NCBI GenBank assembly: GCA_964407925.1
Contig: CAYOXM010000003.1
Location: 5,023 to 69,022 of the forward strand
Direction: 5' to 3'
DNA: 64,000 bases
DNA from: an uncultured Gammaproteobacteria bacterium
GTDB lineage: Bacteria; Patescibacteriota; Patescibacteriia; SG8-24
Below, piece after piece: positions 12,731 to 40,915 of the stretch (position 1 is its first letter; every line of letters begins with the position of its first letter). The translations under genes and the position numbers were made by a program. A model generated the notes under the pieces. That model did not search any database. It was not told the DNA's origin and saw only the letters and a program-made list of their open reading frames with translations.

Positions 12731-12805
12731 TGGTCGGGGCGACAGGGATTGAACCTGCGGCCTCTCGGTCCCGAACCGAGCGCACTACCACTGTGCTACG
12801 CCCCG
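12731..12805 (-). tRNA. tRNA-Pro (anticodon CGG), CCA encoded
   Basis: Reverse complement folds as acceptor CGGGGCG/CGCCCCG, D-arm GCAC-AGTGGTA-GTGC, anticodon stem CTCGG/CCGAG with loop TTCGGGA, and T-arm GCAGG-TTCAATC-CCTGT, ending ACCA. It closely resembles E. coli tRNA-Pro(CGG). Confidence 0.85.
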
Positions 12806-24914: not shown

Positions 24915-26204
24915 CTACTTCCTTTCCGCAAGCGTGACGTCGACCGTTTTCTCCTTGCCCTTGTGCAGCACCTTGAGCGTCACTTTGTCACCGGGACCGT
25001 ATCCGCGAATCGCCACCGCGAGCGGATACTCCTCGGTGAGCTTCTTGCCGCCCGCCTCGAGGATGATGTCGTTCTCCTCGATGCCCGCGACGTCCGCCGG
25101 CGACCCCGGCGACACGGCGAGGTCGGTCTGCGTCTCGCCGCGCACGACGAGCGCGCCGTAATCGACGGAGAGTTGGTTCTGCTTCTTGATGTCCTTGCTG
25201 ACCATCACGTAGCGCACGCCGAGCCAGGCGCGGGTGATTTTTCCGCCGGTCTTCACCGTCTCGATGACGCGCTTCACGTCGTTCGCCGGCAGCGCGAAAC
25301 CGATGTTCTGCGACCCCTGGACGATGGCGACGTTCACGCCGATGACTTCGCCCTTCAGGTTGAGGAGCGGCCCGCCGGAGTTTCCCGGATTGATGGCGGT
25401 ATCGGTCTGGATGACGTCGTAGAGGTCCTCTGGTTTCGCCATGCCGTTCGAGGCCTGGATGGATCGCTTGAGGCCCGACACGACGCCGGTCGAGACCGTG
25501 TTGCCGAACTGGCCGAGTGCGTACCCGATGGCGATGACGCGCTGGCCCACCTTGATCGCGTCGGAGTCGCCAAAATCGAGGTGCGGCAGGCCGGTCGCCT
25601 CAATTTTCAGCACGGCGATGTCATTCGACGGATCGCGGCCGATGACTTTCGCGTCGTGCTTCGCCCCGTCCTGCAGGACGACGGTATATTCGGCGGTCTC
25701 ATCGAGCACGACATGCCGGTTCGTGACGATGTAGCCGTCATCCGTGACGATGAAACCGGTCCCCGCACCGATATCCTTCTTCTCCGTGCCCTTCTGCCGC
25801 ACCTGCGGCATCTGGAACGCGGGGTTGTCGCCGAAGAACTGCTGGAAGAAATCGTCGTTACCGAACGGATTGACGTTGTACTGCTCGTACACCGGCATGT
25901 CCTTCGCGACGACTATCGACACGACCGCCGGAGAAGATTTCGCGACCGTGGCGACCGTCATCTCCTCCTCCGATTCCCGCGCCGCGGCAGGCGGCTGCGC
26001 GGCGCGCGGCTCCTCCGGAGCGCCGACGCCGGCACGGTAACGTTCACCGAGCTGCGGAGAAAGCGAGGTCAACAACGAAGCGGAAAGCTCGCGGTTCGCG
26101 CCGACAATGCCGCCGAGGAAACCGAAAAGCGACGACACGCCGGCAGCGATGACGAGCGCGATGACGACGTAGGCTGTCGCCATCGGATTCTTATGCTCTG
26201 TCAT
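24915..26204 (-). CDS. htrA: HtrA/DegP-family serine protease (trypsin-like domain plus PDZ)
   Basis: TGFIVTDDGYIVTNRHV, DIAVLKI and GNSGGPL catalytic-triad motifs, plus a C-terminal PDZ domain. The start was trimmed to MTEHKNP. Confidence 0.85.
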   Translation of the reverse strand: MTEHKNPMATAYVVIALVIAAGVSSLFGFLGGIVGANRELSASLLTSLSPQLGERYRAGVGAPEEPRAAQPPAAARESEEEMTVATVAKSSPAVVSIVVAKDMPVYEQYNVNPFGNDDFFQQFFGDNPAFQMPQVRQKGTEKKDIGAGTGFIVTDDGYIVTNRHVVLDETAEYTVVLQDGAKHDAKVIGRDPSNDIAVLKIEATGLPHLDFGDSDAIKVGQRVIAIGYALGQFGNTVSTGVVSGLKRSIQASNGMAKPEDLYDVIQTDTAINPGNSGGPLLNLKGEVIGVNVAIVQGSQNIGFALPANDVKRVIETVKTGGKITRAWLGVRYVMVSKDIKKQNQLSVDYGALVVRGETQTDLAVSPGSPADVAGIEENDIILEAGGKKLTEEYPLAVAIRGYGPGDKVTLKVLHKGKEKTVDVTLAERK

Positions 26205-26277
26205 GGCAAATGGCGTTAAGAATTCATTGGCGAAAGTATACTCCCGATAGGACAAGTTGGCAAAGTGCCGAACATTA

Positions 26278-26299
26278 TTTTTGCTTATATAAGCAAAAA
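26278..26299. promoter_or_regulatory. 22-bp perfect palindrome TTTTTGCTTATATAAGCAAAAA in an AT-rich htrA upstream region
   Basis: Read directly from the sequence. It lies about 75-95 nt upstream of the htrA ATG, and a TTATCCACA box sits at 26332. Confidence 0.4.
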
Positions 26300-26372
26300 T
26301 AATGTCGTTCTTATCACTACATAACGTAGTTTTATCCACAACGAAAAACCCACCGGACACGGTGGGTCGAAT

Positions 26373-26582
26373 CTACTCCCGGCGCGGCGCGGGAAGAAGG
26401 CGCAAGCCGAGGATCGCGAGGAGCGGCAGGAGCATGCCGACGCCGATGACGAACGCGTTTTCTCCGGCGACGTCGCTCGGATCGCGGAGCAGTCGCAGGC
26501 CGCCGGACGCGGTAAGCGCCGCACCGAAGGCGAGCAGGACCGCGAGCAGGATGTCCGGCCACGAGGGCCGTTTACGGCGCAT
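26373..26582 (-). CDS. small membrane protein (2 TM)
   Basis: Hydrophobic. It overlaps the upstream gene by 11 nt. Confidence 0.35.
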   Translation of the reverse strand: MRRKRPSWPDILLAVLLAFGAALTASGGLRLLRDPSDVAGENAFVIGVGMLLPLLAILGLRLLPAPRRE

Positions 26583-27109: not shown

Positions 27110-27145
27110 CTTTATCCACAATGGGGACAGTCCCCGTTGTGGATA
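27110..27145. promoter_or_regulatory. near-perfect palindrome TTATCCACAATGGGGAC-A-GTCCCCGTTGTGGATAT (two inverted DnaA-box-like 9-mers)
   Basis: Read directly from the sequence. It lies about 55 nt upstream of the ATG at 27051. Confidence 0.45.
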
Positions 27146-27712
27146 TCAGTAGTCCAAACCGAACCGCGCCGGAACGCCGTGGTAAAAGTAATGTTTCACG
27201 AGCGACACGTCGCTCACGAGGTCGGCAAGTTCGCGGAAGGACTCGGGCGCGTCGCGTCCGGTCAGCACGAGTTCGGTCTCCGCGGGTTTCGATCGGATGA
27301 CGGCAAGCACGTCTTCCTCGGCCAGCATCCCGAGCGTCACCGTCGTGTTGATTTCGTCGAGGATGACGAGGCCGTGCTCCCCATTCGCGAAAATGCCGCG
27401 GACGATTCCGAGGCCGCGCTCGGCTTCGGCCTTATCCTCCGGCGTCACGCCGAAACGGAACCGGCCGGTCACGGGGTCGATGCGGTCGAGGCCCGTGGCA
27501 TGAAGCGCGATTTCGGGAAACCGCTCGGCGATAATCTTACGCTCGGCATAATGGTCGCCGCCCTTGTCGAAGTGGACGATGGCGACCTTCATCCCTTGCG
27601 AGACGGCGCGCAGCGCCATCCCGAGGCCCGCGGTCGTCTTGCCCTTCCCATTGCCAGTGTAGACCTGAATGAGACCCGTGGATTTCGGCGTCGCTGATGA
27701 CCTGCGTTCCAT
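27146..27712 (-). CDS. cobO: cob(I)yrinic acid a,c-diamide adenosyltransferase (CobA/CobO/BtuR family)
   Basis: IQVYTGNGKGKTTAGLGMALRAVSQGMKVAIVHFDKGG. The start was trimmed to MERR. It lies directly downstream of nrdJ. Confidence 0.8.
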   Translation of the reverse strand: MERRSSATPKSTGLIQVYTGNGKGKTTAGLGMALRAVSQGMKVAIVHFDKGGDHYAERKIIAERFPEIALHATGLDRIDPVTGRFRFGVTPEDKAEAERGLGIVRGIFANGEHGLVILDEINTTVTLGMLAEEDVLAVIRSKPAETELVLTGRDAPESFRELADLVSDVSLVKHYFYHGVPARFGLDY

Positions 27713-28046
27713 AAGCGCTGTGGACAACACGACGCCCGATCCTTGCGGACCGGGCGCCGTAGATGTGACCACCTCCTTTACGATGAATGAATCATACGCA
27801 TCGTGGAGGGCCCCGCGACCCCGACCTTTTGCCAGGGTGGCGCGGGGTCTCCCGCAGTAGTGCGGGAGACTCGCCGCCGTATCAGCTTTGCTGACGCACG
27901 GGATGGACTGACGGGAGGTACCGGGTCGCAGCTCTGGATGCACCGCTAGGCGCGGGGTGCAGTCGGGGCGCAGGCGTACTCGACGTACGCCGAGCCTCGA
28001 CGGGGACCCCGCAACGACGCGGTGCGCCAGAGATGCGGGCCGCCGT

Positions 28047-31253
<3,207 letters not shown>

Positions 31254-31430
31254 GGGTGAAAAATTTTTCGAAAAATTGCTGGTGTAGAGTAGCGCGGGTT
31301 CTCACCATGAGCAACCCTCCTTATCCACAACTAATTGTGTCTGTTAGTCCGAGTATACCACAAGATGTTGTGTTGCTTGTGGATAACCCTCCGTACAAAA
31401 AACGACACAAATTTACGCCTTCATCGAGCG
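31254..31430 (-). promoter_or_regulatory. nrdJ upstream region: DnaA-box-like 9-mers, extended -10, and an AT palindrome in the 5'UTR
   Basis: TTATCCACA at 31321 and TTGTGGATAA at 31377 are inverted. A degenerate TATACCACA sits at 31354. On the nrdJ sense strand this gives TG-G-TATACT (extended -10). AATTTTTCGAAAAATT lies at 31263-31278. Confidence 0.45.
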
Positions 31431-40591: not shown

Positions 40592-40673
40592 ATGTCGAGA
40601 GTGTGAAAGGTTGGGAGGTCATGAGGCCGAGAGACGCTCTCAACCTTTAAACCTTTTGACCTCTCAACCTTTT

Positions 40674-40699
40674 AAAAAGCCCGCCTTCGCGTGGCGGGT
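40674..40699 (-). terminator. attenuator terminator CCCGCC-ACGCGAA-GGCGGGC followed by T5 (minus-strand sense) between the leader peptide and lysC
   Basis: Read directly from the sequence. Confidence 0.55.
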
Positions 40700-40734
40700 G
40701 TCTGTCTCGCGTGCGTGTTCTCGCAGCAGCGACC

Positions 40735-40800
40735 TACCCCGCCGAACAAGTCGTCGTGGTCGTGGTCGTCGTCGTCGTCGTGACAAACGCGGTGGCCATA
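40735..40800 (-). CDS. threonine-operon leader peptide MATAFVTTTTTTTTTTTCSAG (11 consecutive Thr codons)
   Basis: Minus-strand reading ATG GCC ACC GCG TTT GTC (ACG/ACC/ACT)x11 TGT TCG GCG GGG TAG. It is followed by a terminator hairpin upstream of lysC-hom-asd-thrB-thrC. Confidence 0.5.
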
Positions 40801-40848
40801 ATGATGGGAGATAGCGTAACACGCTTCCCCGTCGCGTCAAACGACAGA

Positions 40849-40885
40849 CTTATCCACACCGGGGACAGTCCCCCGGTGTGGATAA
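40849..40885. promoter_or_regulatory. near-perfect palindrome TTATCCACACCGGGGAC-A-GTCCCCCGGTGTGGATAA (second copy of the 27110 motif)
   Basis: Read directly from the sequence. It lies about 50 nt upstream of the thr leader ATG. Confidence 0.45.
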
Positions 40886-40915
40886 AAAATGACCCGCCGG
40901 ACAGGCGGGTCGTCG

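Follow-up and report, generated by a model that had tools for sequence, protein, structure and literature searches.

A probable intercistronic leader with a Shine-Dalgarno-like sequence, predicted to be masked, between nrdJ and cobO of Patescibacteria

What is the function of the long and strongly structured spacer between nrdJ and cobO in a GC-rich patescibacterial genome? The two genes encode a class II (B12-dependent) ribonucleotide reductase and an ATP:cob(I)alamin adenosyltransferase. Their spacer was analysed in a stretch of 64,000 nucleotides (nt) of contig CAYOXM010000003.1 (assembly GCA_964407925.1), referred to below as the window. The first-pass annotation had correctly placed the spacer at 27713-28046 with both genes on the minus strand, and had regarded it as one structure of about 330 base pairs (bp), perhaps a B12-responsive RNA, an unclassified riboswitch-like or attenuator element, or a small RNA. 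Comparison with homologous spacers gave a different picture. The spacer is composite: two young insertions (A and B) have been added to an old element, which is, by this comparison, a clade-restricted intercistronic leader of ~130 nt. Expression of cobO is presumably what this leader sets. A conserved element without an Rfam family does exist before cobO, but it is not the 330-bp structure that had been described. The spacer and the parts of the conserved element are as follows.

27713-28046, both neighbours on the minus strand: spacer nrdJ-cobO, 334 bases, non-coding
27868-27903, minus strand: conserved upstream block UCCCGUGCGUCAGCAAAGCUGAUACGGCGGCGAGUC, 36 nt, identical to the closest relative in 34/36 positions (94%)
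27772-27809, minus strand: hairpin P1, in which a CCUCC arm (27805-27809) pairs with GGAGG (27772-27776)
27778-27795, minus strand: mini open reading frame (mini-ORF) AUG AUU CAU UCA UCG UAA inside P1, read directly from the sequence
27767-27779, minus strand: Shine-Dalgarno (SD)-like sequence AAAGGAGGUGGUC, 59 nt upstream of the cobO AUG
27728-27761, minus strand: hairpin P2, UACGGCGCCCGGUCC-GCAA-GGAUCGGGCGUCGUG, 15 bp with a GNRA loop
27713-27727, minus strand: GU-rich tail UUGUCCACAGCGCUU between P2 and the cobO AUG, without Shine-Dalgarno sequence

Eight distinct nrdJ-cobO spacers of related Patescibacteria were compared, including that of the window. They represent about six independent lineages, with CobO proteins 76-100% identical to that of the window. 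The best CobO matches among species-representative genomes were Patescibacteria (Uhrbacteria-like) with at most 61% identity; closer relatives were numerous in a large protein collection, one of them 100% identical. In all seven fetched loci nrdJ lies directly upstream of cobO. These are L161, the closest relative (CobO 92% identical to the window), L165 (82%), L162 (81%), L166 (80%), L081 (79%), L168 (77%) and L167 (76%). Spacer length is 334 nt in the window, 143 nt in L161 and 100 nt in L162. The conserved element of ~130 nt consists of the 36-nt upstream block at 27868-27903 and a 96-nt core at 27713-27808, and the core was kept in all eight spacers. The window and L161 agree in 90/99 positions of the core (91%) and in 94% of the upstream block, compared with 68% at the third codon positions of cobO. 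Because of this difference the conserved part is, judged from the alignments, under selection. The upstream block can form a small hairpin, GUCAGC-AAA-GCUGAU, and contains a GCGAG motif found in all eight homologues and the alignment-conserved sequence GCGGCGAG(Y)CC.

With a covariance model built from the eight spacers no further copy was detected, either in the window or elsewhere among the 176 loci searched (840 kb). One weak match in L045 was rejected as an unrelated terminator. In the genome and metagenome collections the element was missing from more distant CobO loci, below ~76% CobO identity. Scans of viral contigs with the motif pattern gave only unspecific matches to strong SD sequences, and the CobO query found only distant relatives there.

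Among the eight spacers the SD-like sequence has the consensus AAAGGAGGUG(A/G/U)UC, with GGAGGUG invariant. In the window 12 of its 13 bases, and across the homologues 12-13 nt, are complementary to GAUCACCUCCUUU, which we take to be the universal 3' end of 16S rRNA; the comparison was not to the 16S rRNA of this organism, which is encoded outside the window. The site occurs once in the window. Its GGAGG lies 54-62 nt before the cobO AUG in seven spacers and 82 nt before it in L167, a spacing that is kept despite turnover of the sequence in between and that makes the site unfit as a normal Shine-Dalgarno sequence. No AUG, GUG or UUG follows within 3-12 nt in any of the eight sequences, only the near-cognate codons AUC, ACG, CUG or AUA. 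The cobO AUG, on which the N-termini of all homologues agree, is preceded in the homologues by a purine match of 3-4 nt at best. Since the window genome otherwise uses canonical GGAGG, found 4-8 nt before the AUG of many genes, it is conspicuous that a perfect SD lies 59 nt away from a start that has none.

In the minimum free energy (MFE) folds of all eight spacers the GGAGG is paired in P1 with an upstream pyrimidine run (z-scores -0.2 to -4.3), which reads CCUCC, CCUUCCUC, CCCUC or CACCUUCCUU. The SD-like sequence is thus predicted to be masked throughout. The apical part of P1 is AU-rich (42% GC compared with 66% in the window) and holds an invariant UAUG. This AUG opens the mini-ORF, which has a further in-frame AUG at 27801 and no SD upstream, and whose UAA abuts the SD-like sequence. 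A putative mini-ORF of AUG, 3-7 further sense codons and a stop at or within the SD-like sequence is present in all eight spacers. The distance from the nrdJ stop codon to P1 varies from 8 to ~245 nt, so that simple unmasking by a terminating ribosome is not general. A pseudoknot of the P1 loop with the AUCU linker described below, inspected by eye only, was inconsistent between homologues.

A short linker, with AUCU in seven of eight sequences, joins the SD-like sequence to P2, a very stable hairpin. Across the homologues P2 has 11-15 bp, and in some relatives its sequence is wholly different with the pairing kept. In the alignment of the eight sequences 91.7% of the P2 cells are paired, compared with ~43% when partners are slid, and compensatory changes occur in 8 of 14 pairs, a value reached by none of 500 shuffles. 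The P2 helix was predicted by RNAalifold as well. The U- or GU-rich tail behind P2 measures 15-25 nt in most relatives. In the window it contains TTGTCCACA (27719-27727, minus strand), one mismatch from the DnaA-box consensus TTATCCACA and conserved only in L161.

No sigma-70-type promoter was found on either strand of the spacers of the window, L165 and L168. The free-standing small RNA considered in the first-pass annotation is therefore unlikely, and the conserved TATGNN remains unsupported as a -10 element. On the same ground nrdJ and cobO are probably co-transcribed. The promoter of this operon is probably a promoter-like site with NrdR-box-like repeats upstream of nrdJ. As a terminator, P2 of the window has neither a U tract nor a terminator score, and L168 likewise has no terminator-like site; in the AT-richer L165 P2 does score as a terminator. 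Genuine terminators of the window genome have clear U tracts (family D11).

The reading favoured here, tentatively and with somewhat less than even confidence, is that the nrdJ-cobO operon contains a post-transcriptional control module, whose basis is a masked, non-initiating site for ribosome capture. Because complementarity to the 3' end of 16S rRNA is what stays invariant, the 30S subunit is expected to be its conserved partner. In the primary transcript P1 would keep the SD-like site closed. Breathing of P1, or an endonuclease cut in its AU-rich loop, would expose the site, and a 30S subunit could then bind without starting translation. The bound subunit and P2 would together block the cobO segment on its 5' side and stabilise this part of the mRNA, which would set the cobO output relative to nrdJ in the manner of STAB-SD stabilisers. 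Possibly, the captured subunit is also handed to the weak cobO start across the folded P2, in the manner of split ribosome-binding sites. The hairpins behind the nrdJ stop, those of A and B included, would protect the 3' end of the nrdJ segment. If processing and stabilisation take place in this way, a transcript 5' end is expected a few nt upstream of AAAGGAGG.

Protective RNA structures are known to shape operon stoichiometry (PMC5927463). STAB-SD and polypurine stabilisers at mRNA 5' ends have been described, as has a stabilised furA-katG mRNA that arises from a processed bicistronic transcript (PMC2358910). In phage T4, genes 38 and 25 have split ribosome-binding sites, whose spacings of 22 and 27 nt are folded to 5 and 11 (PMC3014915). 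By analogy, the best reading is that the element resembles most the STAB-SD stabilisers or the T4 sites. With the STAB-SD of Bacillus thuringiensis cryIIIA, of B. subtilis leaders and of mycobacterial furA-katG it shares an SD-like sequence that is complementary to the 16S 3' end over an extended length, stands a long way before the start codon, is unused for initiation and is combined with a stable leader stem-loop. It differs in being masked in a hairpin by an anti-SD arm, in its longer complementarity (12-13 nt) and in its position between two genes of a patescibacterial operon. The T4 sites likewise have a conserved hairpin between SD and AUG and are clade-restricted, and one of them lies at an intercistronic junction (PMC3014915), but the spacing here is 54-82 nt and the folded distance is inconsistent. 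Hairpins that sequester an SD, as in riboswitch platforms, RNA thermometers and translational coupling, also pair GGAGG with a CCUCC-type arm; in the present case the masked SD is not beside the start codon, and neither an aptamer domain nor a ligand is evident.

If the capture module exists, it is of unusual design, with 12-13 invariant, masked nt complementary to the 16S 3' end and without a role in normal initiation. Its position between a B12-dependent reductase and the enzyme that activates its cofactor would show how two operon products are balanced in Patescibacteria, which have tiny genomes and few known regulators and whose post-transcriptional control is almost uncharted.

Several observations weigh against the capture module. 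A masked SD misfits a simple STAB-SD, since a STAB-SD must be exposed to work; its release by cleavage of the AU-rich loop would have to be assumed. The element is absent from L169-L176 (CobO 70-77% identical), where other genes precede cobO, so that cobO does not need it: these relatives are equally close and have no nrdJ directly upstream. In the eight available sequences, of about six lineages, P1 is supported by conservation and not by strict covariation, and for L162 and L167 shuffled sequences fold just as stably. The unpaired exterior nt between SD and AUG in the folded eight sequences number 8, 15, 8, 10, 16, 6, 30 and 1, a distance (1-30 nt) that is inconsistent and not distinguishable from that of shuffled spacers. 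The model cannot explain the GCGAG block or the invariant UAUG, and we infer each of co-transcription, processing and 30S binding.

The strongest competitor, unlikely but to be taken seriously, is a split ribosome-binding site, in which the distal SD would be the real SD of cobO, P2 and its flanks would fold the spacer of ~58 nt down to initiation distance, and P1 would keep translation low or conditional. A cobO AUG with a weak SD or none in an SD-using genome, a conserved and covarying P2 between SD and AUG, a spacer of nearly constant length and the precedent at an intercistronic junction (PMC3014915) all agree with it. The MFE folds divide on the matter: 6-10 unpaired nt are left between GGAGG and AUG in the window, L162, L081 and L166, whereas the count is 1 for L168, 15 for L161, 16 for L165 and 30 for L167. 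Shuffled spacers are compacted to a similar degree, the closing helices stand at non-homologous positions, and the known cases bridge 22-27 nt and not 58.

Somewhat more doubtful is a leaky intrinsic terminator or 3'-end module of nrdJ. Here P2, perhaps with P1, would terminate or protect the nrdJ transcript and make nrdJ expression far exceed that of cobO, and the SD would be the relic ribosome-binding site of a lost gene. U- or GU-rich tails follow P2 in all eight spacers (U-rich in L162 and L168), and the score of P2 in L165 fits termination. Lost genes are conceivable in view of the extra genes between nrdJ and cobO in L038, L169 and L171; in L171 an SD-like sequence GUGGAGGGAUC is followed by an AUG at 9 nt. 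The more distant L004 also has the order nrdJ, hairpin, cobO. P2 of the window nevertheless lacks a terminator score and the U tract that the true terminators of this genome have, and there is no promoter between P2 and cobO. In a relic one would expect neither 12 invariant nt beside a P2 that turns over nor an identity of 91% compared with 68% at synonymous sites.

Improbable, in our judgement, is the proposal that the core is a new class of ribosome-responsive switch, in which P1 is an intramolecular copy of the mRNA-16S duplex, or else a very small riboswitch. The basis for such mimicry is a likeness of the 5' side to the 16S 3' end that, in three relatives, continues past the anti-SD (GAACCUGCGGC..CACCU.CCUU). 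The mimic arm would compete for the 12-13-nt SD with free 30S subunits or with a factor able to recognise the 16S 3' end. Such a switch would make the supply of the enzyme that produces adenosylcobalamin (AdoCbl) for the only ribonucleotide reductase depend on ribosome availability, and hence on growth, in the reduced genomes of Patescibacteria. The block 5' of P1 that shows the resemblance was observed in L168 (1386-1412), L166 and L081 (p <= 0.01 compared with shuffles); in L168 it reads GAACCUGCGGCGAGCCCACCUUCCUU, compared with GAACCUGCGGCUGGAUCACCUCCUU of 16S rRNA. In the window, L161, L162 and L165 the resemblance was not significant.

Slightly less probable still is coupling through an upstream open reading frame, which would start at the AUG of the mini-ORF or at a near-cognate AUC, be translated through P2 and end in termination-reinitiation at the SD-less cobO AUG. 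The invariant UAUG and the end of the mini-ORF at or in the SD-like sequence in all eight spacers would suit such a mechanism, as would an AUC 7-8 nt after GGAGG in seven of them. The AUC frame stops at -8, -6 and +1 relative to the cobO AUG in L166, L081 and L168, and in L161 and L167 the AUC is in frame with cobO. However, the mini-ORF is not preceded by an SD, AUC starts translation very poorly, and the codon is missing from L165. The frame opened by AUC continues into cobO for 173 nt in the window and for 43 nt in L162, and the frame relations are inconsistent.

A riboswitch that senses AdoCbl or another metabolite and controls cobO, the idea favoured in the first-pass annotation, is very improbable. 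Rfam was scanned at gathering thresholds and, permissively, at E <= 10 on 27500-28250 and at E <= 5 in the seven homologous loci; an 83-nt piece of L168 was scanned as well. No meaningful family match was obtained, only chance-level ones (on 27500-28250 E >= 0.56, far below gathering scores). A recurring weak match to CC2171 was rejected, as it reflects only AAAGGAGGUGAUC and a hairpin. The cobalamin riboswitch models had no match at E <= 10 in this segment of the window and none at E <= 5 in the seven loci. The B12 box (GCCACTG) occurs three times in the 64-kb window, and not in or near 27713-28046. No transfer RNA (tRNA) or transfer-messenger RNA (tmRNA) was found in the region with ARAGORN, and a search for tandem repeats gave nothing relevant. 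These scans bear out the remark of the first-pass annotation that a convincing B12 box and RNase P, tmRNA and SRP signatures are missing. The spacer shows no sign of a cobalamin riboswitch, and the B12-responsive RNA was not supported: likeness to the cobalamin riboswitches (RF00174, RF01482, RF01689) is confined to the gene context, a B12-dependent enzyme followed by the adenosyltransferase, and the conserved multi-helix core is lacking together with model match and B12 box. That P1 masks the SD like a riboswitch expression platform and that the element is unknown to Rfam would be compatible with a sensor. The core, however, consists of a pair of plain hairpins and lacks a multi-helix junction, the large structures belong to the insertions and are not conserved, and the masked SD lies away from the start codon. 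Equally improbable is that the whole spacer is neutral filler with chance hairpins; GC-rich DNA folds readily and ~60% of the spacer (A and B) is not conserved, but the core exceeds synonymous sites well in conservation and recurs in all eight nrdJ-cobO spacers, P2 has compensatory changes, and the fold z-scores lie below -7.

The fold of the spacer as a whole is exceptional. For a stretch of 361 nt the MFE was -199.5 kcal/mol on the minus and -201.7 kcal/mol on the plus strand, compared with -156 +/- 6 for dinucleotide shuffles (z = -7.6 and -8.6), none of 100 being as stable. In a GC-corrected sliding scan, segments of the spacer were among the most structured of the 64-kb window. The description of the spacer as non-coding and strongly structured was thereby confirmed. 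The in-frame upstream extension of cobO (ORF 27146-27943) was rejected as coding, since its frame is broken by indels between close relatives, namely a 59-nt insertion and a 1-nt indel relative to L161. Other ORFs of the spacer were rejected because indels between relatives break them.

The two insertions are as follows.

27904-28046, minus strand: insertion A, 143 nt, 73% GC, a long imperfect hairpin directly 3' of the nrdJ stop
27809-27867, minus strand: insertion B, 59 nt, 75% GC, two near-perfect hairpins

Insertion A folds with -93.7 kcal/mol. Its base is closed by CGGGAUG (28054-28060) paired with CAUCCCG (27898-27904), so that the nrdJ stop codon lies inside the hairpin, and its apex is GGCGUAC-GUCGA-GUACGCC. 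At this site L161 has 12 nt in place of 143. Insertion B, which separates the conserved upstream block from P1, has the hairpins GUCUCCCGCA-CUAC-UGCGGGAGAC and CCCCGCG..CGCGGGG and is missing from L161 and every other homologue. Together A and B account for ~200 nt, or ~60% of the spacer. Conservation of the region is divided, with the ~130-nt element in all eight spacers and the ~200 nt of A and B not conserved.

The three structures that the first-pass annotation had singled out, GTCTCCCGCA-GTAG-TGCGGGAGAC at 27847-27870, GGCGTAC-TCGAC-GTACGCC at 27973-27991 and GGGGACCCCG near 28002, are present as quoted. All of them lie inside the two insertions that the closest relative L161 lacks, and for this reason they are not a conserved aptamer and do not constitute the element. 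The Rfam scan and the covariation analysis of homologous nrdJ-cobO spacers that had been proposed there gave no family and a covarying P2 (8/14 pairs), the quoted hairpins being absent from L161.

A and B are lineage-specific GC-rich palindromic DNA and no part of a sensor. Their function would be at most that of 3' protective hairpins for the nrdJ segment. They resemble REP/BIME- or MITE-like palindromes in being long, imperfect and GC-rich, in lying between operon genes, and in being present in one genome and missing in a close relative (A and B are in the window and absent from L161). Dispersed inverted copies, a further likeness, are seen in the related genomes L169 and L171. In L169 GC-rich palindromes at 502-658 and 1368-1525 are inverted copies with 84% identity over 159 nt, and in L171 those at 334-430 and 910-1007 have 91% identity over 98 nt; in both loci small genes that separate nrdJ from cobO have a copy on either side. 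Two near-identical 19-mers, GAAAAAATAGGAGGCGGCC and GAAAAAGTAGGAGGCGGCC, border the first L169 copy and look like a target duplication. L081 has a different long palindrome at the corresponding site. From L081, L169 and L171 it follows that the clade accumulates such elements in intergenic DNA, repeatedly right behind nrdJ. A and B differ from dispersed repeats in that no second copy was found in the 64-kb window or in the 176 fetched loci, and neither a transposase nor a clear target duplication was found for them. As a warning, conspicuous intergenic structure in these GC-rich genomes can mostly be young palindromic insertions, and GC-rich hairpins say little about function before the homologous spacers of close relatives have been compared.

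The genes on either side were assigned as follows.

28047-31253, minus strand: nrdJ, class II (B12-dependent) ribonucleotide reductase, the upstream gene, assigned from PF02867, PF08471, PF12637 and PF03477 and its translation
27146-27712, minus strand: cobO, ATP:cob(I)alamin adenosyltransferase, the downstream gene, assigned from PF02572 (E = 8e-51)

The nrdJ product has the Pfam domains ATP-cone, Ribonuc_red_2_N, Ribonuc_red_lgC and TSCPD, and the gene ends with a TAG at 28049-28047. In L162/L163 and L169 nrdJ encodes ~1427 amino acids and contains an intein with a LAGLIDADG endonuclease domain, according to precomputed Pfam hits; the window nrdJ (1068 amino acids), unlike these, has no intein.

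Upstream of nrdJ (31254-31400, minus strand) two NrdR-box-like 16-mers, ACACAACATCTTGTGG and ACACAATTAGTTGTGG, were noted. A -10-like hexamer TATACT overlaps the first of them, and perfect copies of TTATCCACA / TGTGGATAA flank the pair. A strong SD, UAAGGAGGG, with an AUG near 31306 opens an ORF of 48 codons that is out of frame with nrdJ. The nrdJ AUG (31244) has no SD. Here, as before cobO, the operon has a strong SD well away from the annotated start. In the more distant relatives L038 (~2420-2450) and L082 (~150-185) a terminator stands before cobO together with an extended -10-like element, TGTTAGAAT or TGCAATAAT, only 7-8 nt from the cobO AUG, which suggests a leaderless cobO mRNA there.

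The DnaA-box consensus TTATCCACA occurs in six perfect copies in the window, or 11 with up to one mismatch, compared with 2.1 expected. Sites lie at 27112-27146 and 40850-40885, and also at 26332-26340, 31321-31329 and 31378-31386. Two pairs of copies fold into 36-nt hairpins of nearly the same sequence, TTATCCACAnCGGGGACnGTCCCCnnTGTGGATAA, and one hairpin directly follows the cobO stop. No dnaA gene is near these hairpins, and the neighbouring gene of 468 amino acids encodes an aspartokinase. The repeats look like a small REP-like repeat or the site of an unknown regulator.

The 320-nt intergenic region at 40592-40915, from the DUF5715 gene to the aspartokinase gene, is also strongly structured (z down to -4.8). 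Besides several hairpins it contains two stems that resemble terminators and a series of GTC/GTG triplets (~40750-40785), and it had no Rfam match at E <= 1 except chance microRNA hits. A low-GC island (0.36-0.45) in the 66% GC window was found at 26150-26400, with a perfect 34-nt palindrome at 26272-26305, a terminator-like hairpin and a promoter-like TTGCCA-17-TATACT, upstream of a gene for a trypsin/PDZ (HtrA-like) protease. Finally, the segment 12576-12730 is strongly structured on the minus strand (z down to -5.0) and adjoins a tRNA at 12734-12805.

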